From the NCBI GenBank assembly GCA_019056785.1, contig DXJV01000029.1, forward strand, positions 32,001 to 96,000: 64,000 bases of DNA, in the 5' to 3' direction. This stretch comes from Candidatus Heimdallarchaeota archaeon. GTDB taxonomy: Archaea > Asgardarchaeota > Heimdallarchaeia > JABLTI01. The stretch's first letter is position 1; each line of letters opens with the position of its first letter. A model generated the notes under the pieces. The model was not told where the DNA came from. It did no database searches and saw nothing but the letters and a program-made list of their open reading frames with translations. The position numbers and the translations under genes were made by a program. Below, piece by piece: positions 4,313-16,483 of the stretch.

Positions 4313-4600
4313 TTATCTTGCATCCTTTCAAACGATTTTACATGAAAGCTTAGCTCTTTTTTTACTTGTAATAACTATTTAAGCTTTTCATCGAATAGTG
4401 TTAATGAATGCCTTTTTAAGATAAGCATGAAAATTCATTTAAATAAAAAGCATTAAATTTCGTGCAAAAGGAAAGCTAGAAGCAAATTTCAGAGAGAATA
4501 ACGACTTTAAATAGAGAAAAGCTTTACGAACTTTAACTGAATGGCAAAGCGATAAAACGGCTGCTATCTCCCCCTCAAAAATATGAAGAAGTGATGTTTT

Positions 4601-5695
4601 ATGAGCAAGCAAAAAAGAGACCCATATGAAGTTCTCGGCGTGTCCAGAAATGCCACTGCAGATGAAATTAAAAAGGCTTACCGGAAACTTGCTCGAAAAT
4701 ATCATCCCGATGCAAATCCCGGCGATAATCAAGCGGCAGAACGCTTCAAGGAAGTTTCAGAAGCTTATTCCATTTTAAGTGACCCCGACCAAAGAGCTGC
4801 CTACGATAATTTGGGTTGGGCGGGTTTAGGAGCAACTGCTGGGGGAACAGGCGGGGATCCCTTTGCAGGATTTGGTTTTGGCGATATTTTTGGAAGCATT
4901 TTCAGTGATTTCTTTGGCGAAAGAAGAGGTTTTCGAAGAGAAGCAACGGGAAAACACATTCGTATATCTTTGGAATTGACTTTTGAAGAAGCAGCCAGTG
5001 GTGTAAAAAAGAAGATCACAGTAAAAAAGCATGAAACATGTTCGCGTTGTAATGGCTCGCGAGCAGAACCGGGTACTAGCCCGAGAAGATGTAGTGTTTG
5101 TGGTGGCTCGGGCGTAGAAGAGATCCGGCAACGAACACCATTTGGTATTATGATTAATCAAACGATTTGCAATGCCTGTAACGGGACAGGGGAGATGGTG
5201 GACCACCCTTGCACTCTTTGTAAGGGAACAGGCTTAGAAGAGAAAACAAAGAAAATTACTGTTGATATCCCTGCAGGAATAGATGACGGGCAAAAAGTAA
5301 TCATCCGTGGTGAAGGCGAACCCGGGCCACATGGCGTCCCGCCTGGAAATCTCTATATCATTATCCGTTTGAAACCCCACAAATACTTCCATCGCGAAGG
5401 TAATGAATTAATCTATGAACACACAATCAATATTGCGCAAGCAGCATTAGGCGATACCATTTATGTCCCGACATTAGTTAAAGGAGAAAAAGCCAAAGTG
5501 AAAATCCCTCCGGGAACAGAAATGAATACTATTTTCAGACTTAAAAACAAAGGCTTTCCTAATGTGAATGGTTATGGAAGGGGAGATATGCACGTTATTA
5601 TTAGAATTTCCACACCAAAGAAGCTTACACCTCGAGAGAAAGAGCTCTTAACAGAATTGAAAGAAATCTGGGCAGCAAAAAAAGATGGTTCCTAA
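4601..5695 (+). CDS. dnaJ: Chaperone DnaJ (class A)
   Basis: J-domain with HPD, a G/F-rich region, four CxxCxGxG-type repeats and the C-terminal substrate domains. Confidence 0.97.
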
Positions 5696-5847
5696 GTAAA
5701 AAAAAAGTGAGACTAAGAAAAAAACGAGAGTAAATTGTTGTTTTTAAAAGAAAAGATTTATTAGCTTTAAGAGGCAAACAAACAATCTAATTATAAATTT
5801 AAAAAGAATATTTCGGATATATATGATAAAAGAAAGGTTGCATAAAA

Positions 5848-7050
5848 GTGGAAAATTTAGTTATTAGCCATAATCGAGATGTTGTTCCTTCCAAATTGCC
5901 TGTCGAGATTGTTGAACGAAAAGGGCAAGGACATCCTGACTTTCTCTGTGATAAGGCAGCAGAAGAGTTAAGCATCGCGATAAGTAAATGGTATATTGAA
6001 AGATATGGGCGGATCCTCCATCATAATGTAGATAAAGCTGTATTAGCCGGCGGACAATCTGTAACGAAAATTGGAGGTGGGGAAGTACTCGAACCAATTT
6101 ACCTCTTACTTGTTGGACGAGCTGTTGGAGTGAATGCTCAAATAAATGGGCAATTCTTACCAATTGGCAAGTTAGTTATTGAGACCACCAAAAATTGGTT
6201 GCATAAAGACCTCCCTCATTTAAATATTGAACATGACATCATTATTGATTATAAAATCCGCTCAGGGAGTACTGACCTAGTTGGTAATTTCGAAGAAAAC
6301 ATTGAAATCCCACGAGCAAATGATACATCTATCGGGATTGGTTTTGCTCCTTTTTCACCGTTAGAAGAATTGACCTATAAAACTGAACGATTATTAAATG
6401 ACCTTGAAATAAAGAAAAAGCACCCCGCAATTGGTGAAGACATAAAAGTCATGGGCGTCCGGAAGAAGGACAAGATAGACTTGACAATTGCTTGTGCAAT
6501 GATCAGTACAGAATTAGTCGATATTGATCATTACTTTACAACAAAAGAAGAAGTAAAAGAATTAACCCTGGATTTGGCTGCAGACATCTGGGGAGGAGAA
6601 ATAAACATTGATGTTAATGTAGCAGATGTTCCTGGAAATGAAGATTGTTTGTACTTGACAGTAACTGGCACATCAGCAGAGCAAGGAGACGACGGACAAG
6701 TTGGCCGGGGAAATCGGGTAAATGGATTAATAACACCTTATCGACCAATGACCCTCGAAGCAGCAGCCGGAAAAAATCCCGTAAGCCATGTAGGAAAAAC
6801 TTACAATATTGCTGCTAGAAAGATTTGTGAGCAAGTTGTGAAAGAGCTTAGCGTCGAAAATGTCGATTGTTACTTAGTAAGCAAAATAGGTGTGGAAATT
6901 ACAAAACCATACGTTATAGAACTGGCTCTCGTTGGTGGTAAAGTTGACAGTAAGACCAAACGAAACCTCGAGGAGATCGTTCAAGAACAATTGAATCAAA
7001 TGCCAAATATCTGGCGAGGGTTTATTAACCGCTCTTATGAACTCTACTAG
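5848..7050 (+). CDS. mat: Archaeal-type S-adenosylmethionine synthetase
   Basis: [51 protein letters not shown]. Confidence 0.96.
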
Positions 7051-7059
7051 AGTAAAACT

Positions 7060-8646
7060 TTAACTAATCTTTAGTTTCGGCAGAGGAATGAGATAGATTA
7101 TTCTCTCTCCTTTTAACCCCCCGAAAGTTAATTCAAGATTGCTAAGCTTCACAGTGCCTTTTCGCTTTGCAAGAACCGGTTGGGTAAAAAGAAGCTCCTC
7201 TCCCGGAGCCAACATTTTTTTCCGAAGATGTCTTTTCACTCCAATGGATTCTAAAGCATCTCTGGGTTTCCATGAGAGTTCCTTTATTTGAAAGGATGGC
7301 AAAGCAACATCCGACCTGTTGAAAATTTTGATGACAAGATCGCCTGCTGTTCCAAAAGAGGTGAGAGTATATTGAACTACGACACTAATACTCTTTTTAA
7401 TGAGCGACTCGAGACAACCATGCCAGAATTTTTGAAGTGAGACAGGGAGTTTTGCCACCTCTTTTAGTCGCATGAATAGTTTTTTAGCGGTTTTTACTTT
7501 ATACTCCAAAATGGCTTGCAGAAAATCAATCACAAGCTTTGTTTGGCCATTTTGTTTAATGCAATATTTGATCTCTTTTCGAGCAGGTAAGGCAGACAAA
7601 CTTTTTTCTTTGCTTTCATTCTCCTTGACTCGACTTGAATAAACATGCAGAATGACAGTTAGTGTTAGCAACAAAGGAACTTGTTTACACGCCTTCCGAG
7701 CAAGAAGAGCTAGACAATAATTTAATGTTGCAGAGCTAAACCGAGCAAAACTATCTACTTCTTCAAAGAGAGAATGATAAAATGACTCGAGAAGCTCTTC
7801 TTCTAACTCCACAGTTAGAAACGAAAGAGGAAAGTCGTTAGTAAGAACGGTGGCAGAAATTAATTTACAATAATCGAACAAATTACTTATTTCTTTTTGT
7901 TTATAACGTTCTTCTCTGTCAAAATGACCCACGGACCATTTGTTTCTTTTAGCTAAGTTCAAAATCAGCTCTTGAGAATGACGGTCCTTCAAAAACAGCA
8001 TGGAAGCCAAAAAGCTAAATTTCCTTGCTAGGGGTGTTTTTTTAAGAATATTTTCGAAAAAAATGTCAAAGGCTTTAATAGTTAATATTTCTGTTTTTTC
8101 TTCTAAGGCCGAGAAATCTATGGGCAGCTGCCAAAAGTCACTTTTAGCCTCCAAGAGGGTTAGAATATTCTCGGAAAGCGGCATGGCTTTAGAATTAAGA
8201 GTTATTATTGGCCGTGATGAAAGTTTATAGTTCGTTATTTTCTCTATTTCAACAATGATTTTTGCAAATTGTTCATCCAAAGCAACTGTTTGTTCTGAAA
8301 TTGTTGGCGAAGGCTTTAGCTTGGGATACCGTAATAGGCGAATTGTGGTCTTCTTGAGATGTTTTTTGATCTTTCCCAAGGCATCTTCAGAATAGCTGGT
8401 GTCTTTAATACAATAACCATCACGATTGAAATAGTACAGCCTCCCAAGAGAATCATAATCAGCGAAAACAATGTACGCTATTGGTTTGTATTTTGTGAGA
8501 ATTAGTTGAGGAACTGGTCCCCTATAGAAGGTTTTAACACCCTTGGCTTTTCGAACCTCAACATAGACCGGCTTTTTGGAATTATATTCATGTTTCGCAA
8601 ACTCATAAAGACGTTTTTTTACATCACGAGGCGGAGTAGAAGGCAT
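7060..8646 (-). CDS. Hypothetical protein with a probable C-terminal Ig-like beta-sandwich
   Basis: 528-aa ORF. The C-terminal ~110 aa show an alternating beta-strand pattern (LVIKIFNRS...LAPGEE...GTVKLSNLELTF). Confidence 0.65.
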   Translation of the reverse strand: MPSTPPRDVKKRLYEFAKHEYNSKKPVYVEVRKAKGVKTFYRGPVPQLILTKYKPIAYIVFADYDSLGRLYYFNRDGYCIKDTSYSEDALGKIKKHLKKTTIRLLRYPKLKPSPTISEQTVALDEQFAKIIVEIEKITNYKLSSRPIITLNSKAMPLSENILTLLEAKSDFWQLPIDFSALEEKTEILTIKAFDIFFENILKKTPLARKFSFLASMLFLKDRHSQELILNLAKRNKWSVGHFDREERYKQKEISNLFDYCKLISATVLTNDFPLSFLTVELEEELLESFYHSLFEEVDSFARFSSATLNYCLALLARKACKQVPLLLTLTVILHVYSSRVKENESKEKSLSALPARKEIKYCIKQNGQTKLVIDFLQAILEYKVKTAKKLFMRLKEVAKLPVSLQKFWHGCLESLIKKSISVVVQYTLTSFGTAGDLVIKIFNRSDVALPSFQIKELSWKPRDALESIGVKRHLRKKMLAPGEELLFTQPVLAKRKGTVKLSNLELTFGGLKGERIIYLIPLPKLKIS

Positions 8647-8833
8647 TAGAAGTCCCTATGTTTTTTATTCGTAGTAGTTTATCTGGTAAAATCTGTTTTT
8701 AACTTTGTTGAAAAACTCCCCGGTAAAAAGCCAAAGGGAATAACTAAACGTTATTATTTAGGAAAGACTCAAAATATTGCTAGAAGACTATTATTATTCG
8801 TAAAAAAAGAAGAATATAGGTGTTGTTGGAAAA

Positions 8834-9826
8834 ATGACCTTTAATGAGATAAATGACGGTATTTGGAATGTTTATGGAGACCATGGCGAAGGGGGCGAGA
8901 GAAATGCTATTTATATCATAATGGATGAAAATATTGCCATAATTGACACAGGCCTCCGAGGGACAATCCAACACGAGGTCCTCGAATGCATTGAATATGC
9001 AAATCGCAAACCAAAAGAAGTGAAATACATCCTTTTGACTCGAGAGCATCACGATGCAATTGGAGGGGCGCGTCAATTATTAGATTACTTCCCAAAGGCC
9101 GAATTGGTTTGTCATAAAGCTGCAGAGGAAACACTTCGCAAACCCTATCTCTATCTCCCAGAAAAGCATTTCGAGCCGAATAAGAAAGGCGGGAGATTTA
9201 CCTTCCAACCCTGGGAACGCCTCTCCGGGATTAAACCTCATGCTGTTTTTGAAGACGGCGATAAATTCCCACTCGGAAAAACAACCCTGTATGTTGTTGC
9301 TTATCCTGGATTCAGTCAAGGGCATGCAATGTTTTTCAGCTCGAAACAGAAGGCGATTTTCACCGGTGCAGAACTCTATATTTATCCGATGCGCTTTAGT
9401 AACTATCTGATCGATAAAACTGGAAGCGCAGCAGAACGAGAAAAAGCATTGGAATTTATTTCGCGAGCGAAAATTGATATGATTTGTCCTGCCTACGATG
9501 GAGCGTATATTGGAAGTCAGGCTAAAGAATTAATTAAACAAGCTCTTGCTGCACATAAGAATTTTGAAGAAACGATTTTAATTACTCTAACTACTAGAGG
9601 AGCATGCACTTTTGACGAGATACGGGATGAAGTCTATCTAAGTTTGGGAATTGAATGGTATAAACCTTGGAAAGATCTCGTGGACGATTTAACTTTAAAA
9701 GCCCATTTGAAACAATTAGAAGAGGAAGACAAGATCTTTCGTTCTTCCAAAACGAGACGGAAAGAACCGCTCTGGGAAATCCATGAGGAACATAAAATCG
9801 ATCCAGAAAAAACGCTCTATTATTAA
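8834..9826 (+). CDS. Metallo-beta-lactamase-fold protein with degenerate metal ligands and a C-terminal winged helix
   Basis: IIDTG, LLTREHHDAIGG, PGFSQGH, FTGAE and CPAYD align to the MBL motifs; the C-terminal AHLKQLEEEDKI region is wHTH-like. Confidence 0.85.
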   Translation: MTFNEINDGIWNVYGDHGEGGERNAIYIIMDENIAIIDTGLRGTIQHEVLECIEYANRKPKEVKYILLTREHHDAIGGARQLLDYFPKAELVCHKAAEETLRKPYLYLPEKHFEPNKKGGRFTFQPWERLSGIKPHAVFEDGDKFPLGKTTLYVVAYPGFSQGHAMFFSSKQKAIFTGAELYIYPMRFSNYLIDKTGSAAEREKALEFISRAKIDMICPAYDGAYIGSQAKELIKQALAAHKNFEETILITLTTRGACTFDEIRDEVYLSLGIEWYKPWKDLVDDLTLKAHLKQLEEEDKIFRSSKTRRKEPLWEIHEEHKIDPEKTLYY

Positions 9827-9901: not shown

Positions 9902-10414
9902 TTATTGAGATTTTTTAATTTGCTTTAAAATTTCTACAAGAGAAGTTCTTGTGCCGTCACCACGGAGTGCCGATGTGCCGATAACTTTGCCTTTAAAACC
10001 AAGCATTTGTTTTATCTTCTCAGGTGGAAGTGCGCCTGGTTTGTCTTGTTTATTCGCACAAATAATTAGTGGCACCCGGCCACAAACAGCTTTAATGCGT
10101 TTTGTAAGGGCTTCAACTTGCGAAAATGTGGAAGGGTCGGTGCTATCAATCACCATAATAATCCCCGAAGCCCCCCTTGCAACGCATTGTTGAACATCTT
10201 TGAAATGATCTTGTCCGGGCGTGCCAAAAATGTGAACATGAAAGTTTTCGATCATATCATGGGTGAAGTCCAAGCCAACAGTTGTACCATTCACAGCAAC
10301 ATTTATGGGTTTTGTACCAAATTTTTGGACGAATTCAGATTTACCTGCATTATAAGGGCCTGTTACAACAATTTTAATGTCTTGTTCTGGACTATGGGGT
10401 TCCATATTTTCCAC
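9902..10414 (-). CDS. Small GTPase, MglA-like
   Basis: G1 GPYNAGKS, TTVGLDF, G3 GTPGQ (no Asp, as in the MglA group), G4 NKQD, G5 TSA. Confidence 0.9.
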   Translation of the reverse strand: MENMEPHSPEQDIKIVVTGPYNAGKSEFVQKFGTKPINVAVNGTTVGLDFTHDMIENFHVHIFGTPGQDHFKDVQQCVARGASGIIMVIDSTDPSTFSQVEALTKRIKAVCGRVPLIICANKQDKPGALPPEKIKQMLGFKGKVIGTSALRGDGTRTSLVEILKQIKKSQ

Positions 10415-10722
10415 CGACTAATACTACTTTCTTTAGCATTAAAAGATTAAATATTATCGAAATAATATGTAAGGCTAGGCTTGGGGCAGCATGAAAAATA
10501 GTAGAAACAGCTCACCTAGTAGGGAAGCCAAAAAAGGGGGGTTAGAAAAAATTAACATTTACAAGGGGATTTTAAAAAAAATCATTGTAAAATTTCAGCA
10601 ATTTTCAAGAAAAAATTTTTATCAACGATTTTGTCAAAACTATAATCTTTAAAAATAATGATTTTCTAGATATATTACAAATTCATAAGAATTGAAAAAG
10701 GAAATTAATGATGTGATTAAAA

Positions 10723-11220
10723 ATGAAACCTGTTAGTTTGTGTCTTGTACAGATGGGCACAAAGGGATTGGAATTGGTTAAAGTTTATCCTAATGTTCTT
10801 CCTGAAGAAATTCTTAATCAAATTGTTGTTAAAAGCATGCCATTTAATGCAAAAAACGGTGATTTTGCTTCAAGCACTATTGGAGATGCAGTCTTTTCAG
10901 GGTATATTTTTTCTGTACCATCTGAAAATGAACGAGACAATATTGCCTCACTTGTTGCGGTTTATAACAATATGAATTATGATTCGAATGCATTACGGAA
11001 AGTTTTTGCATTTACTATTGCAGAACTCAAGAAGAATAATGTGGCTGATATTGAAACATTAACAAAGATATTACCAAACCTTTACAATGGATTGGTAAAC
11101 GGTCGCTTAAAGATCAAAATAAGCTCTGTAATAACCCTCGAATTTGACATGCAATATAAAGATGAGAAAGATGTAGATTTGGAATCATTGAATGGTTTTG
11201 GGAAAGATCTTTGGAAATAA
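10723..11220 (+). CDS. Hypothetical protein, uDENN/longin-like
   Basis: The pattern GLELVKVYP...IVVKSMP...GDF...FSGYIF...R.NIASLVAV resembles the uDENN (longin-fold) module. Confidence 0.6.
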   Translation: MKPVSLCLVQMGTKGLELVKVYPNVLPEEILNQIVVKSMPFNAKNGDFASSTIGDAVFSGYIFSVPSENERDNIASLVAVYNNMNYDSNALRKVFAFTIAELKKNNVADIETLTKILPNLYNGLVNGRLKIKISSVITLEFDMQYKDEKDVDLESLNGFGKDLWK

Positions 11221-11250
11221 TAACATCAAGAGAAAGAAGGTAAAAAAAAG

Positions 11251-11781
11251 ATGTCTTTTTTAAAGCGATTGTTTCGACAACGTACCAAGCGAGTAACGAT
11301 AACCATTTGTGGTCTAGATAATGCCGGAAAGACAACCATTGTTCGATACCTAGTTGCTGGAGAATATAAATCCACAGTACCAACAATGGGAGTCAACAGA
11401 GAAGTCATTGATTTACCTAATTTACAAATGGATATTTTTGACTTAGGCGGACAGCTCGATTTTCGTGGCATTTGGCCTGAAATCAACGAAAAATCAGATG
11501 GACTCGTTTATGTTGTAGATGCATCTGATTATATTCGTCTTGACGAAAGCAAAGAAATTTTCTACAACATTATTAACGCACAAATCAATCCTTTAATTCC
11601 TGTGCTTATTCTGTTAAATAAGTGCGATTTAGAGGAGCGTCTCAGCCGCATTGAATTCATTAATGCTTTTGACTTACCTTCTTTGGGGAATATTAAATGG
11701 GCTTGCTTTGTGACTTCAGCGATCACCGGAGAAGGAATTTATGATGCCTTTCGCTGGTTTATTGACGCTTTTCAGGAGTAA
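11251..11781 (+). CDS. Arf-family small GTPase
   Basis: N-terminal amphipathic helix MSFLKRLF, G1 GLDNAGKTT, G2 PTMG, G3 DLGGQ followed by RxxW, G4 NKCD, G5 TSA. Confidence 0.95.
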   Translation: MSFLKRLFRQRTKRVTITICGLDNAGKTTIVRYLVAGEYKSTVPTMGVNREVIDLPNLQMDIFDLGGQLDFRGIWPEINEKSDGLVYVVDASDYIRLDESKEIFYNIINAQINPLIPVLILLNKCDLEERLSRIEFINAFDLPSLGNIKWACFVTSAITGEGIYDAFRWFIDAFQE

Positions 11782-11789
11782 GATGAATT

Positions 11790-12734
11790 ATGGCTTTGGT
11801 ACTTTCAAGTTATTCGTATTATTATTTAATTGCAGGAATCATTAACTTCACTGTTCTTTCTTTTCTTCTTGTTTTGTTGATAATTCACTTTTTCCGCAAA
11901 AGAACTGTAGGAACATTTCTACTAATAATGACTTACGCAAGTGTATGGATAAATGAGATTTTAATGACATTGGCATTTTACCTCGAGGCACTTTACCCAG
12001 GAAATGAAAATTACCTAAAAGCAGCCCAAACAATGCAAATGACAGGCGTCTTCTTTTTGGTTTATACCATAAACTGGATGTATTTCTTTGCGAACAGGCA
12101 TTTAATTCGTGACAACGACTTGTTTAAATTGTTATATACCTCAATTTTTAGCGCTTTTGTTGGCGTTGCTGGAGGATTAGCTTATTATGACATCTACACA
12201 GGAGATAGAAACAATCCATTCTGGTATTCAATAATTGAACTAGCAGGTGCAGACTTTAATCTTAATTATCCTCCAACACAAGGGCTACGGTTGATTCTTA
12301 TAGGGGGAATGTTTGCCATTGGTTCAATCACCTATCTACGATTAATTGTACGAACCACAAGACTCACCCGCAAAGCTAAAGATCTCGTTACTAAAAAGGG
12401 CCTACGAATTGTCAGTTTATCTATTCTCTTTTTATGGTTAACAGGCTTAGTTCTAGCATTATATATTTTTGGAGCAAATCGAATTCCCTGGCTTTCTGTA
12501 TTGGTTTATCTCTTTCGTGGAATGATCGTCATTACAGCAGTAATTCTTGGGTATCTAGGCTGGATTATGCCCGAATGGCTAAGAAGACGACTTCGAGGGA
12601 AAGCGTGGATTGCAAAAGTTTACACAGGTAAATTGCCTGAACCACCAAAGAGCAAAGAAAATATTGAAAAGGCACCTAAACCAATAACTTCACCCACAAG
12701 CGCAAATCAAATTGTAGAAATTTCCGAACAGTGA
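11790..12734 (+). CDS. 7-TM integral membrane protein
   Basis: Seven hydrophobic segments counted by eye; basic loops after TM1 and TM5 and a basic C-tail; 8 nt downstream of the Arf gene. Confidence 0.8.
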   Translation: MALVLSSYSYYYLIAGIINFTVLSFLLVLLIIHFFRKRTVGTFLLIMTYASVWINEILMTLAFYLEALYPGNENYLKAAQTMQMTGVFFLVYTINWMYFFANRHLIRDNDLFKLLYTSIFSAFVGVAGGLAYYDIYTGDRNNPFWYSIIELAGADFNLNYPPTQGLRLILIGGMFAIGSITYLRLIVRTTRLTRKAKDLVTKKGLRIVSLSILFLWLTGLVLALYIFGANRIPWLSVLVYLFRGMIVITAVILGYLGWIMPEWLRRRLRGKAWIAKVYTGKLPEPPKSKENIEKAPKPITSPTSANQIVEISEQ

Positions 12735-12745
12735 AATTTCGACAA

Positions 12746-12763
12746 TTATTTTTTTTTATTTTT
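12746..12763 (+). terminator. T-rich archaeal-type terminator candidate for the uDENN-Arf-7TM operon
   Basis: An oligo-T tract lies just after the 7-TM stop codon, between convergent genes. Confidence 0.45.
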
Positions 12764-14246
12764 AGAAAAGCAATTGGCGGTAGGTCAATTCTGCAATAAG
12801 AGCTGCCGCAGATATGGTATCTCCTAAACCAACAGTTTGAATTGGGTCTTGAACGATAATAGTAGGAACTGCTAGAATCGTATACTCATTCAAATCAAAG
12901 TCCTTATAAGAAACATAAGTTTCTATTTTTTTCAACAGATTGTTAACCTTCTTGAATGCTTTTGGAAGAGTGGCATCAATATCTATCGTATCAATTATTT
13001 CTTTAAATTTGAATACTCCTTTTGCTTTTCCAGTAATAGCTTTATGGGCAGCTATTAATGAAGCAAAACACAGCGTTTTAAATAAAAGAACTTCTGGAAT
13101 AGGATAGTCTTTTGAAACAAATAGAAGATAACAACCAAAAAGATGTAAATGTAGCCGCTCAAGTTTGAGCTTCTCGCAAACCTTAAGAGCCCCTTTAATT
13201 ATCAATTCATAATTAGTAAACATATCAGCTTTGATTTCATTTGCCAATCTTTTCTGCTTTATTGCCTCAAGGAGTTCAACAAGCTCTCGTTCATTACATC
13301 CTAAACTATTCCAGTAAGTATCTTTTGAAGAATAATAATAAAGCCGGTCTAATAAGAGTCTATTTTTCGTACTGGCAAGCTCAAGATGAACCAGTAAATT
13401 AGGATTAGCTTTTTTCGCTCGTGTAATTAACTCAAGTGTTTTTATTATCTTCTGATTGACTCCTTCTTTTCCAAGCTTCTTTACATTAAGCATATGAAAG
13501 CCTGAAAGAATTAAAAGGTCAGATTTTTCAGCTAAAACCTCTATATCCCTTTGAAATGCCTCAAGTATTTCTAATTCTGCATTTGGTGGATCGAAGGTTG
13601 CAATAAAGCGATTATCGCGTGGGCATTTCCAATATAGTTTTTCACCCAATTTTAACGTATCACCCTTGTGTACTTCAGAAATGATGTGGAAATACAAGCT
13701 TTCATCAAAATCCTTCACCTTTCGAGGGTGTAAAAAGACAAGCTCCCCTTCTTTATTATAAAGGGGAATTTGGATGTTTTTTTTCTTGCTAAAAAGCTCT
13801 CGCATTAGCTTTGGCAAGGTGGTGGTATGAACAAAAATCTGTCGAACACCCAATTCAGCATAGAGATTAGCAATAATTCCTGCCTGCCCACCTAATTGTA
13901 TTTTTTTTGGTGGCGGGAGGTTTTGGAGGAGGTACTGATAGGTTTCTTCTGACTCGATTAACCATTCACTTGCTTTTCCTTTCTCGAAACAGCCACACAG
14001 CCCTGTGATAAAGTCAACAGGAGAATGAATTTTTCCCTTCCATTTTAGGATATTTGTATATAATCTAACCGGGTCGACACCAATTTTCTTGATTAAATTA
14101 AGAATCTGTTCGGAATGAAAATCGATGATCGCATCAATATTAGTATTGAATCCAACAATGGCTCCCCGCACTTTTTTAATGTTTTTTAGGATGTTTGAGA
14201 AGGAGTCATGATAGATTTCTGCCCAAGACACTCGAATATTCCTCAC
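12762..14246 (-). CDS. pfkC: ADP-dependent glucokinase/phosphofructokinase
   Basis: GFNTNIDAI, LGGQAGIIAN, NRFI, HLELAS, SLGCNERE and the C-terminal TVGLGDTISA. Confidence 0.92.
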   Translation of the reverse strand: MRNIRVSWAEIYHDSFSNILKNIKKVRGAIVGFNTNIDAIIDFHSEQILNLIKKIGVDPVRLYTNILKWKGKIHSPVDFITGLCGCFEKGKASEWLIESEETYQYLLQNLPPPKKIQLGGQAGIIANLYAELGVRQIFVHTTTLPKLMRELFSKKKNIQIPLYNKEGELVFLHPRKVKDFDESLYFHIISEVHKGDTLKLGEKLYWKCPRDNRFIATFDPPNAELEILEAFQRDIEVLAEKSDLLILSGFHMLNVKKLGKEGVNQKIIKTLELITRAKKANPNLLVHLELASTKNRLLLDRLYYYSSKDTYWNSLGCNERELVELLEAIKQKRLANEIKADMFTNYELIIKGALKVCEKLKLERLHLHLFGCYLLFVSKDYPIPEVLLFKTLCFASLIAAHKAITGKAKGVFKFKEIIDTIDIDATLPKAFKKVNNLLKKIETYVSYKDFDLNEYTILAVPTIIVQDPIQTVGLGDTISAAALIAELTYRQLLF

Positions 14247-14346: not shown

Positions 14347-15531
14347 TTAGTCATCAAGGTCATCTACATCACCATCATCATCTTCATCTCTATCGACATC
14401 ACGTGATCTGCTCCAGCGTGATGGATAGGTTTCACCGGCAAATGAATATGCCAAGAGGAAGAGAACAAAATAGACGATACAGGTAAGAGCAAGTGCAGCA
14501 GTCAAGGCGGCATTGCGCACCTGAATTGTTCCTGCAGTGCGAACGAGGTCAACTGCGATGAACATCGGCAACATAACATATGCACCAATTGGAACATTAT
14601 CTCTCTTTGTTCGTTTGACCTTCTTGAAGAATCGTAATAAGAATTCTAACAAGCCAAAGAAGATAGTCACACCACTAATGACATAGAAAATGATGTCACG
14701 AGCAGGTAAGGTCATCGGGACAAGAATATAGGTAACGAAAACTGCAGTTGCAATGAGAAATTCTACGATATAAAGTATGCCTTTTGGTTTGGAGGTCGTC
14801 CGGTCCACTTGAGATGCACCTTCATAAATGAAATTCACAAAACCAGCAAGTACTGCTCCGATGCCAACGGAATACCCAAAGCCATAGATATAGTGAACGA
14901 AACCATATTCAGTCAAAATAGAACCTGTAGCTCCGGAACCAGACCAAAAGTTCCAAATATTGTTCCAGACAGTGCCATAATTTGCGCAGAATCCAATTGC
15001 CAAAACAATGGGAATAGCCGCCAGTAAAAGGCTGGGAATAAATGTCAACCATCGTGGGAGCTTTTTGCCAGTTTTTCGCTTTATTATCCAGGGGATCAAA
15101 CCAAACGATGCAACTACACCAATTATTGGCGTCCCAAAGGGGAGAATAAAGAAGACGAAAATGAAGAGCGCATTCACGCTGTAGAAAATATTCAATCCAA
15201 GGCTTACTTTTCGCATTGCTCGACCCATGTTTTCAAAAGTCTCTGCAACACGATTAGCATCCACAACGAGGAAGACCACCCAAGGCATGCTGAAAAATAC
15301 CGGGATAAAACCATAGACAAAAACCTTGGCCCAGACTTCGGGGAGAAAAGGAATAGTTTGCGCCGGATTCAGATACCGAAAATCTTCCCATGTAATTATT
15401 GGTGGGTCAAACCAACCTAAAGCAGGACTCGATCCTGCGACCATTAGAGCAAAGAACAATGGTATCACAATTATTAACACAAGTGTTATTAACCGACCCC
15501 AAATCAGTCCTTTTAATTTCTTAAGCGCCAT
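14347..15531 (-). CDS. Hypothetical polytopic membrane protein with an acidic C-tail
   Basis: About 10 hydrophobic segments; ends in DRDEDDDGDVDDLDD. Confidence 0.75.
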   Translation of the reverse strand: MALKKLKGLIWGRLITLVLIIVIPLFFALMVAGSSPALGWFDPPIITWEDFRYLNPAQTIPFLPEVWAKVFVYGFIPVFFSMPWVVFLVVDANRVAETFENMGRAMRKVSLGLNIFYSVNALFIFVFFILPFGTPIIGVVASFGLIPWIIKRKTGKKLPRWLTFIPSLLLAAIPIVLAIGFCANYGTVWNNIWNFWSGSGATGSILTEYGFVHYIYGFGYSVGIGAVLAGFVNFIYEGASQVDRTTSKPKGILYIVEFLIATAVFVTYILVPMTLPARDIIFYVISGVTIFFGLLEFLLRFFKKVKRTKRDNVPIGAYVMLPMFIAVDLVRTAGTIQVRNAALTAALALTCIVYFVLFLLAYSFAGETYPSRWSRSRDVDRDEDDDGDVDDLDD

Positions 15532-15763: not shown

Positions 15764-16483
15764 ATGGCTCTTCAAACAAATGGTTTGATAATCCCACGAG
15801 GAATGGTTTTGCCTTTGAAACTCTTTCAGATAAATGGAGGGTCTTTAGGGAGTGCTTCAACAATTGTCAATAATTTGAAGGAACACCCTGTTGAGTTTAA
15901 AGAACGGAAATACTACGAGGGATTTTCTGATGTTGATTCCAATGGCAATATGATTAGTGTCTACTACACAATAGGACAACCCATCACAGTTCATCGAATG
16001 AAAGACGGTGAAATGACACCGCAAGTAGTGTATTCTCAAGGCAAGTGCGAATATATTATCCACGTCCGAGAGAAATTCCTTGAATGTAGAGGAACATCTT
16101 GGGTTGTGAAGAAAGGATTAACCCCCCTTATGGAGATTCTTGGAGTGGAATTCGATGGCGTGCATTTAAATGAAAACTCCATGGTCACTTTATGTAGGAA
16201 TGCTGCGTTGGTAAAAACAGTACAAATCTCAGACCTCGATAACCCAGCTTTAAATCAAATTCAACTAAGTGGAGAAATCCTCGATTCAGCTGAATGGACC
16301 ATTTATCGCAGGCAAGGAACGATCCGATATTTCCGGGGGTTCATTGACTTGCCAACAGGGGGTCAGCTCAGCGCTCAAGTAACAAATAAAGGGTCGATGC
16401 TAATTTATAAACGAGGTGTTGGCATCCCGGCCGAGGATGTTATTGCCGCTGTAAATATGATCATGAAGTTAGCAAAAACATAA
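15764..16483 (+). CDS. Hypothetical alpha/beta protein
   Basis: 239-aa ORF preceded by an SD-like AGGTGA; no family recognised with confidence. Confidence 0.75.
   Translation: MALQTNGLIIPRGMVLPLKLFQINGGSLGSASTIVNNLKEHPVEFKERKYYEGFSDVDSNGNMISVYYTIGQPITVHRMKDGEMTPQVVYSQGKCEYIIHVREKFLECRGTSWVVKKGLTPLMEILGVEFDGVHLNENSMVTLCRNAALVKTVQISDLDNPALNQIQLSGEILDSAEWTIYRRQGTIRYFRGFIDLPTGGQLSAQVTNKGSMLIYKRGVGIPAEDVIAAVNMIMKLAKT

Follow-up and report, generated by a model that had tools for sequence, protein, structure and literature searches.

The window analysed here is a stretch of 64,000 nucleotides (nt; G+C content ~38%) of contig DXJV01000029.1 from a Candidatus Heimdallarchaeota archaeon. It carries a gene for a seven-helix membrane protein, referred to below as 7TM, which is preceded on the same strand by genes for a longin-fold protein and an Arf-family small GTPase (Table 1). 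The order longin, Arf, 7TM is compact, with spacers of 30 and 8 nt, and the distance of 8 nt between the Arf stop codon and the 7TM start codon suggests that translation of the two genes is coupled; the T-rich run behind the 7TM gene is a possible archaeal oligo-T terminator. Most likely, the NPRL2-like longin, the Arf GTPase and 7TM constitute a three-protein module that is found in Asgard archaea only and is encoded in one tight operon.

Gene context is the strongest evidence for such a module. The same three-gene order was observed in every readable contig that carries a 7TM homologue of 44–56% identity. Searches of this genome with a hidden Markov model of the family showed that 5/5 close 7TM paralogs are located directly downstream of Arf and longin paralogs; the five paralogous cassettes reside on five contigs with unrelated flanking genes, and the four best intact Arf matches in the genome are exactly the cassette Arfs. 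The full cassette was also present at 16 of the 20 loci of close family members from relatives, and on one contig (L001, positions 4384–9327, + strand) the triplet occurs twice in tandem together with an extra longin gene, the second 7TM copy having N-R-I-L-L-G-D-N-D in place of N-R-H-L-I-R-D-N-D. When 17 complete cassettes were compared, the identity matrices of longin, Arf and 7TM correlated with r = 0.90–0.93 (Mantel p ~2e-4, a value inflated by shared descent), and the cassette therefore duplicates and diverges as a block. Mean pairwise identity in the same 17 cassettes is 0.31 for 7TM, 0.58 for Arf and 0.52 for the longin; 7TM thus diverges about twice as fast as its two partners, which would fit a protein whose input part diversifies while its coupling face stays fixed. 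A link between the membrane protein and the adjacent GTPase had been surmised in the initial annotation of the locus, and the conserved, repeatedly duplicated gene order strongly backs it.

Seven hydrophobic segments are apparent in the Kyte-Doolittle hydropathy profile of 7TM, and an AlphaFold2 model built on a 13-sequence alignment (mean predicted local distance difference test score, pLDDT, 82.2; predicted TM-score, pTM, 0.76) contains seven transmembrane (TM) helices at residues 7–37, 40–68, 73–101, 111–137, 167–195, 199–226 and 233–259. The loop between TM4 and TM5, which would correspond to the second extracellular loop (ECL2), forms a two-stranded beta-hairpin (147–150 and 157–160), and TM7 is followed by an amphipathic, helix-8-like segment (262–279) and a 35-residue tail of low confidence. 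The cassette 7TMs end in V-E-(V/I)-S-E. Lysine and arginine are distributed very unevenly, with 20 such residues in the cytoplasm-assigned loops (after TM1, TM3, TM5 and TM7) versus two in the outer loops (16.9 versus 1.3 on average over 49 family members), and because of this bias the positive-inside rule assigns the protein an N-out/C-in topology. All of this agrees with the initial annotation, which had described seven TM segments, the same topology, a long TM4–TM5 loop (now seen to be structured, with the hairpin at 147–160), a basic third intracellular loop (ICL3) and a helix-8-like segment; each of the basic patches it listed, RKRT after TM1, RTTRLTRKAKDLVTKKGLR after TM5 and PEWLRRRLRGK after TM7, was found. 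Its further statement that TM7 holds an arginine and no lysine, so that a rhodopsin is unlikely, also stands: the residue is Arg243, and the column is R in 39/49, K in 5/49 and another residue in 5/49 members. Nor is a kinase or cyclase fused to the protein, as had been noted; no output domain was detected in 7TM, which has no Pfam domain and a tail of low confidence.

7TM belongs to an unannotated family that, judged by its sequence relatives, is restricted to Asgard archaea. No Pfam match was obtained at E ≤ 0.1, a search of PDB chains with the family profile gave nothing at E ≤ 10, and profiles of GPCRs (G-protein-coupled receptors), among them 7tm_1, 7tm_2, 7tm_3, Frizzled and Dicty_CAR, and of rhodopsins, HisKA_7TM and HlyIII matched none of the 49 family members at E ≤ 1. 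The open reading frame is nevertheless a real gene, since it has 13 close homologues (44–98% identity) and 63 cluster representatives at E ≤ 1e-3, all of them from Asgard archaea; the closest named ones come from metagenome bins labelled Thorarchaeota, Heimdallarchaeota or 'Asgard group'. Matches to the family occur in 169 of the 400 genomes of the phylum that were searched and fall into two tiers, a close one (E 1e-62 or better) found only in the window's own class and a distant one (E 1e-16 or worse) found elsewhere in the phylum.

The conservation of the family sits on its basic cytoplasmic face, and the outer half varies. At least 90% of the 49 members share the residue in 15 columns (K37, T39, G41, L45, Y98, F100, R103, D108, R184, G204, Y255, G257, W258, P261 and W263), every one of which is located at a cytoplasmic helix end or close to it; the corresponding signature motifs are given in Table 1. 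The motifs of the first and second intracellular loops (ICL1 and ICL2) and of the TM7/helix 8 junction (Y-L-G-W-x-M-P-x-W) are present in the window protein, each position being kept in at least 90% of the 49 members except H104 (39/49). Mean top-residue frequency is 0.55 in the inner loops and helix 8 versus 0.28 in the outer loops in the wide alignment, and 0.86 versus 0.52 among close orthologs.

In a Foldseek search of the PDB, the top 50 matches of the 7TM model were all GPCRs, of classes A, B2, C and T, with E-values of 2e-3 to 1.5e-2 and TM-scores of ~0.5. The exhaustive aligner VIA, in which helical bundles reach Z ~14 by arrangement alone, returned Z 15.8 for an LGR receptor (229 residues, root mean square deviation 3.8 Å), 15.5 for the MT1 receptor, 14.7 for a designed GPCR-like fold and 14.5–14.6 for microbial rhodopsins. 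Because rhodopsins score nearly equal to GPCRs (Z 14.5 versus 15.8), the predicted fold appears to be that of a generic seven-helix receptor or sensor rather than a sign of GPCR homology, and descent from GPCRs is unsupported by sequence. The class A hallmarks CWxP, NPxxY and the TM3–ECL2 disulfide are absent from 7TM: the protein has no cysteine at all, its TM6 contains no proline and its TM7 ends in Y-L-G-W-I-M-P-E-W, not in NPxxY, while the only echo of the DRY motif is positional, namely a conserved N-R-H where TM3 ends. The likening of the protein to GPCRs in the initial annotation thus holds for the overall predicted fold and fails at the finer levels, given the weak Foldseek E-values, the near-equal rhodopsin scores, the lack of a GPCR profile match in the 49 members and the missing class A hallmarks. 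No transporter or enzyme fold stands out in Foldseek, VIA or the ESM Atlas, and the helix count is seven.

The best shape match in the ESM Atlas was an Asgard-only cluster (413 amino acids, aa; 78 members; TM-score 0.66) in which a similar seven-helix bundle is fused to TIR_2, so that related bundles do occur with a signalling output domain. Bacterial seven-helix sensors with histidine kinase and GAF domains are also listed there, and one Asgard cluster close to 7TM in feature space carries an automatic name derived from HisKA_7TM, a hint that 7TM may be remotely related to that family. A search of the window's own genome with HisKA_7TM (PF16927) produced no match at the family loci and two sub-threshold matches elsewhere (on C31 and C45).

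Both soluble products of the cassette are recognizable. The GTPase is an Arf (PF00025, E 6e-42, 143.5 bits versus a cut-off of 22.3), which confirms the adjacent GTPase of the initial annotation. Its GLDNAGKT, DLGGQ (catalytic Gln68), NKCD and TSA motifs are intact, and its N-terminus forms an amphipathic helix (MSFLKRLF...) without Gly2; the G motifs and an MSFLxxLF start are conserved across the 17 cassette Arfs. The same protein gives a sub-threshold Pfam match to G-alpha (47.4 bits versus a cut-off of 48.8). Two points had been overlooked in the initial annotation: the longin itself, and that it, not the GTPase, is the more persistent neighbour of the 7TM family. Its model (pLDDT 85) displays the strand-helix order of longins, and in structure searches it matched best the NPRL2/NPRL3 longin domains of GATOR1 (E 1.2e-7, TM-score 0.68), followed by the SEA-complex, Lokiarchaeal, FLCN, DENN and SMCR8/C9orf72 longins; searches of PDB sequences with the longin profile retrieved chance matches only (E 0.33–1.6). 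Arg71, located in the loop between strands 4 and 5 and invariant in 38 homologues, may be an arginine finger comparable to Arg78 of NPRL2. The loop between strands 1 and 2 reads G-x-K-G, as against the GP motif published for longins that are GTPase-activating proteins (GAPs). Trp164 at the C-terminus is invariant, the 165-aa longins ending in D-L-W-K.

Table 1. Features at and around the longin-Arf-7TM cassette (positions are those of the window)
Feature	Positions	Strand	Remarks
Small GTPase gene	9902-10414	-	170 aa; Pfam Ras 6.6e-16, Arf 2.8e-15, Roc 2.5e-14
Longin-fold protein gene	10723-11220	+	165 aa; no Pfam match; first cassette gene
D-L-W-K end of the longin	11214-11217		possible docking tail
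Arf-family small GTPase gene	11251-11781	+	176 aa; Pfam PF00025; second cassette gene
GGAG, Shine-Dalgarno-like	11775-11778	+	within Arf 3' end, 11 nt before the 7TM ATG
Seven-helix membrane protein (7TM) gene	11790-12734	+	ATG to TGA, 314 aa
V-E-(V/I)-S-E end of 7TM	12717-12731		possible docking tail
T-rich run	12746-12763	+	12 nt past the 7TM stop; overlaps the 3' end of the convergent ADP-dependent kinase gene
Multi-pass membrane protein gene	14347-15531	-	394 aa; acidic tail; no Pfam match
Protein gene	15764-16483	+	239 aa; no Pfam match
ICL1 motif K37-x-T39-x-G41			7TM signature, cytoplasmic side
TM3 end/ICL2 motif Y98-x-F100-x-x-R103-H-x-x-x-D108-N-D			7TM signature, cytoplasmic side
R184 in TM5			7TM signature, cytoplasmic side
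ICL3 motif K-x-G204			7TM signature, cytoplasmic side
TM7/helix 8 junction motif Y255-x-G257-W258-x-x-P261-x-W263			7TM signature, cytoplasmic side

In the reading that we favour, and to which we give an even chance, 7TM serves the Arf switch module as its docking or sensing subunit in the membrane. The conserved basic cytoplasmic face (ICL1, ICL2, ICL3 and the TM7/helix 8 junction) would dock the soluble partners at the membrane, and in this way 7TM would position or gate GTP cycling by the Arf paralog that belongs to it. The NPRL2-like longin would regulate Arf, probably as a GAP with Arg71 as the candidate arginine finger, and the fast-evolving outer half with ECL2 would supply each paralogous module with an input of its own. 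In this scheme we infer the physical binding, the soluble contact of 7TM, any ligand and the direction of regulation. The presence of five co-diverging sets per genome is hard to explain by a mere anchor and suggests a resemblance to paralogous sensor systems.

Gene order at further loci and one complex prediction bear on which soluble protein 7TM might contact, and several of the observations weigh against the reading just given. At four loci of the window's genus (L007, L009, L010 and L012) the longin gene is followed by 7TM across spacers of 41–109 nt that leave no room for an Arf gene; the 7TM of L010 is itself broken by two stops. On contig C60 of this genome (L034:4029–4430, - strand) the Arf is a pseudogene, with the P-loop Gly changed to Val (GLDKAVKT), the catalytic Gln lost and an in-frame TGA, beside an open longin (166 aa) and an open 7TM (300 aa). 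In the distant members of the family the basic patch of ICL1, the K-x-G-F element of ICL3 and, most notably, the junction motif Y-L-G-(W/Y)-x-M-P-x-W are retained; the N-R-H...D-N-D motif is missing from them. At 6 of the 13 distant-member loci inspected, 7TM follows a gene for a ~150-aa protein with no GTPase gene between them. Five of these six upstream proteins have sub-threshold Pfam matches to Fuz_longin_1, Sybindin or Robl_LC7, and one ESM Atlas feature match (0.92) of a ~150-aa partner was to a Roadblock/LAMTOR2 cluster; a profile-profile comparison with the 165-aa longins revealed no relation (E 0.36). The ~150-aa partners end in K-(D/E)-S-(L/F)-W, a possible docking tail. On contig C18 of this genome (L037:2563–4603, + strand) two distant 7TMs of 271 and 246 aa (E 9e-12 and 3e-8) are arranged in tandem behind a gene for a 138-aa protein with a roadblock/longin-like start, without a GTPase, and similar pairs are found at L021, L025, L026, L029 and L031. 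By gene order, the most persistent companion of 7TM is therefore a longin-type protein.

The complex prediction favours the other partner. 7TM was scored against Arf and longin together, with row-matched alignments of the 17 cassettes and three controls, and the complex reached 0.57 versus 0.00 for the best control, which supports it weakly: the mark used for such predictions is reached by 58/80 solved complexes and 2/110 mismatched pairs, scores up to 0.60 being those of only 7 of the 80 solved complexes and of both passing mismatches, and our own alignments and the use of three chains depart from the calibration setup. The runs agreed in at least 82% of contacts, with a partner pLDDT of at least 78. 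When the Arf chain alone was swapped the score dropped to 0.00, a result that points to Arf as the predicted contact of 7TM, in conflict with the gene order, which indicates the longin. Binding of 7TM is thus argued from gene order and from a single complex score, which would support it weakly. In addition, Arf does not need a protein anchor, because it possesses an amphipathic N-terminal helix of its own, and the match of the 7TM fold at Z ~15 lies near the helical-bundle background of VIA. No fusion of 7TM to a GTPase or a longin was detected among proteins of 666–2000 aa searched with the family alignment, which is weak evidence. Finally, no RNA run is present among the public runs that match window positions 10600–12800; half or more of the sampled words of this region were found in four DNA runs, from sediment, marine sediment and hydrothermal vent metagenomes.

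Another way to account for the operon and the co-divergence, which it fits as well, is that 7TM lies downstream of the switch, as a channel, transporter, lipid-handling protein or sorting cargo targeted by GTP-bound Arf. In eukaryotes, effectors and cargo at membranes are the main targets of Arf-family proteins, and two conserved membrane-embedded positions, E56 of TM2 (acidic in 33/49 members) and R243 of TM7 (R or K in 44/49), could line a polar path; a covariation test of the two columns revealed no clear pattern. The top structural matches of 7TM are, however, all receptors, rhodopsins or sensor proteins, with no transporter or enzyme fold, and the family is conserved at its cytoplasmic rim, not along a pore, with an outer half that varies freely. 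We therefore regard a downstream target as improbable, if still worth serious consideration.

Rather less probable, in our view, is a true receptor of the GPCR type, in which a ligand would bind in an outer pocket, the cytoplasmic face would act as guanine nucleotide exchange factor (GEF) for Arf and the longin as GAP, so that the three proteins would carry out an archaeal receptor/G-protein cycle. What speaks for such a cycle is shape and position: the GPCR-like predicted fold with its ECL2 hairpin and helix 8, the coupling of a variable outer half to a conserved inner face, and R103 (47/49 members), which is located at the cytoplasmic end of TM3 like the arginine of the class A DRY motif (its position being taken from helix boundaries, not from a superposition). 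The loss of the complex score upon the Arf swap would add weak support, and the sub-threshold G-alpha match of the Arf points the same way. Set against this are the lack of a sequence relation to any GPCR family, the absence of NPxxY, CWxP, the TM3–ECL2 disulfide and indeed any cysteine, the rhodopsins that match the fold nearly as well, and the 7TM-longin pairs that persist without Arf. Moreover, longin domains are common GEF platforms, so that a GEF activity of 7TM would be unneeded.

It is very unlikely that 7TM is functionally unrelated to the longin and Arf and merely co-transcribed with them; the loci without Arf and the inferential nature of module binding would allow it, but the 5/5 paralogs in cassettes at unrelated loci, the 16/20 loci of relatives, the block duplication of the triplet and the co-divergence of its proteins all speak against it. 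A light sensor with retinal or another chromophore, to which the rhodopsin alignments (Z 14.5) might point, or a seven-helix hydrolase of the PAQR/HlyIII type, for which a PAQR cluster aligns to the Atlas model (TM-score 0.56/0.67), can be practically dismissed, as 39/49 members have Arg for the basic residue of TM7 and hence no Schiff base can form, neither Bac_rhodopsin nor HlyIII profiles match, 7TM is N-out where PAQR proteins are N-in, and the family alignment contains no conserved intramembrane His column and no conserved intramembrane His/Asp metal site.

An AT-rich spacer of 308 nt separates the cassette from a second small GTPase gene of divergent orientation (Table 1). This gene also accompanies the orthologous cassette in four other contigs but is absent beside the four paralogous cassettes of this genome. 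The genes for the 394-aa multi-pass membrane protein and the 239-aa protein occur in the same order beside the ADP-dependent kinase gene in related contigs.

Asgard Arf GTPases behave as membrane-associating switches in eukaryotic cells (PMC11914678; bioRxiv 10.1101/2024.02.28.582541), and the cassette names, for archaeal Arf GTPases, a matched candidate regulator and a candidate membrane partner, one set per paralog. Binding of the longin-Arf pair by 7TM would make this protein the first receptor or platform known in an archaeal membrane for an Arf switch, and one could then test directly whether signalling through receptor-coupled GTPases, or longin-membrane coupling of the GATOR1/LYCHOS type, is older than eukaryotes. 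Should 7TM prove to be a receptor with GEF activity, the logic of GPCRs and G proteins and the longin-GAP control of lysosomal GTPases would both be represented in prokaryotic relatives of eukaryotes, as insulated paralogous channels. Even without such binding, 7TM would represent a family confined to Asgard archaea that has so far lacked annotation and whose genes are repeatedly linked to those of longin or roadblock proteins. The small size of the three proteins would permit their expression and assay.

Both soluble proteins of the cassette belong to described Asgard classes, namely the Arf GTPases ArfR/AArf (bioRxiv 10.1101/2024.02.28.582541; PMC11914678) and the GAP-like and NPRL2-like longins (PMC12290439, Traffic 2025; Liu et al., bioRxiv 10.1101/2020.10.19.343400). 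The question of which GTPase partners the GAP-like Asgard longins is raised in PMC12290439. The portions of these four texts that were available make no mention of a transmembrane neighbour or of a longin-Arf-7TM operon, and the literature searched, which lacked most subscription papers, contained nothing relevant on an Asgard operon of a longin, a GTPase and a membrane protein. Liu et al. (10.1101/2020.10.19.343400) describe a different Asgard operon, composed of a LAMTOR1-like roadblock, a Rab-like GTPase and DENN, and in strain MK-D1 the GTPase genes are generally located outside operons with longin/roadblock genes (PMC10933270). In a 2026 preprint (10.64898/2026.10.28.762692), the structural clusters shared by Asgard archaea and eukaryotes include, without further description, '7TM proteins' and 'a class C GPCR', which may or may not refer to the family of the cassette 7TM.

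With the eukaryotic GPCRs of classes A, B2, C, T and Frizzled, 7TM shares the seven helices, the N-out/C-in topology and the helix order of the predicted bundle, as well as the ECL2 hairpin, a basic ICL3, an amphipathic helix after TM7 and a GTPase as presumed partner. It differs from them in having no sequence-profile relation and no NPxxY, CWxP or cysteine, and while GPCRs use a heterotrimeric G protein, the candidate partner here is a monomeric Arf-type GTPase. The HisKA_7TM (PF16927) and other seven-helix sensors linked to histidine kinase, GAF or GGDEF domains have a similar predicted bundle (Atlas TM-score 0.49–0.58), but PF16927 is absent from the 49 family members (E ≤ 1) and 7TM is devoid of a fused kinase, cyclase or output domain.

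The nearest functional parallels, by analogy, would be GATOR1-Rag with LYCHOS and the actinobacterial conservons. LYCHOS/GPR155 is a lysosomal protein with a GPCR domain that binds GATOR1 (PMC11525196; bioRxiv 10.1101/2024.11.21.624772), and the system formed by GATOR1 (NPRL2-NPRL3-DEPDC5), RagA/B and LYCHOS likewise unites an NPRL2-shaped longin, a small GTPase and a GPCR-shaped membrane protein. Coupling of this type would account for the survival of longin-7TM pairs where the GTPase gene has been lost. In GATOR1 signalling, however, the GTPase is a Rag rather than an Arf, the cassette longin is a single 165-aa domain without the C-terminal part of NPRL2 or DEPDC5, and LYCHOS has a transporter domain that 7TM does not possess; the likeness is not backed by sequence homology. 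The conservons (CvnA-D; PMC13343842, PMC13621833, PMC4316618) are operons of a membrane sensor, a regulator of the roadblock/longin superfamily (the roadblock protein CvnB) and a small Ras-superfamily GTPase; they are multiplied as paralogous sets per genome, as the cassette is, and have long been likened to receptor/G-protein signalling. They are bacterial whereas the cassette is archaeal, their sensor CvnA is histidine-kinase-like where the cassette has a bare 7TM, the GTPase CvnD is MglA-like and not an Arf, and a fourth component, CvnC, is present. The cassette would be a variant of the membrane-sensor-linked small-GTPase module.

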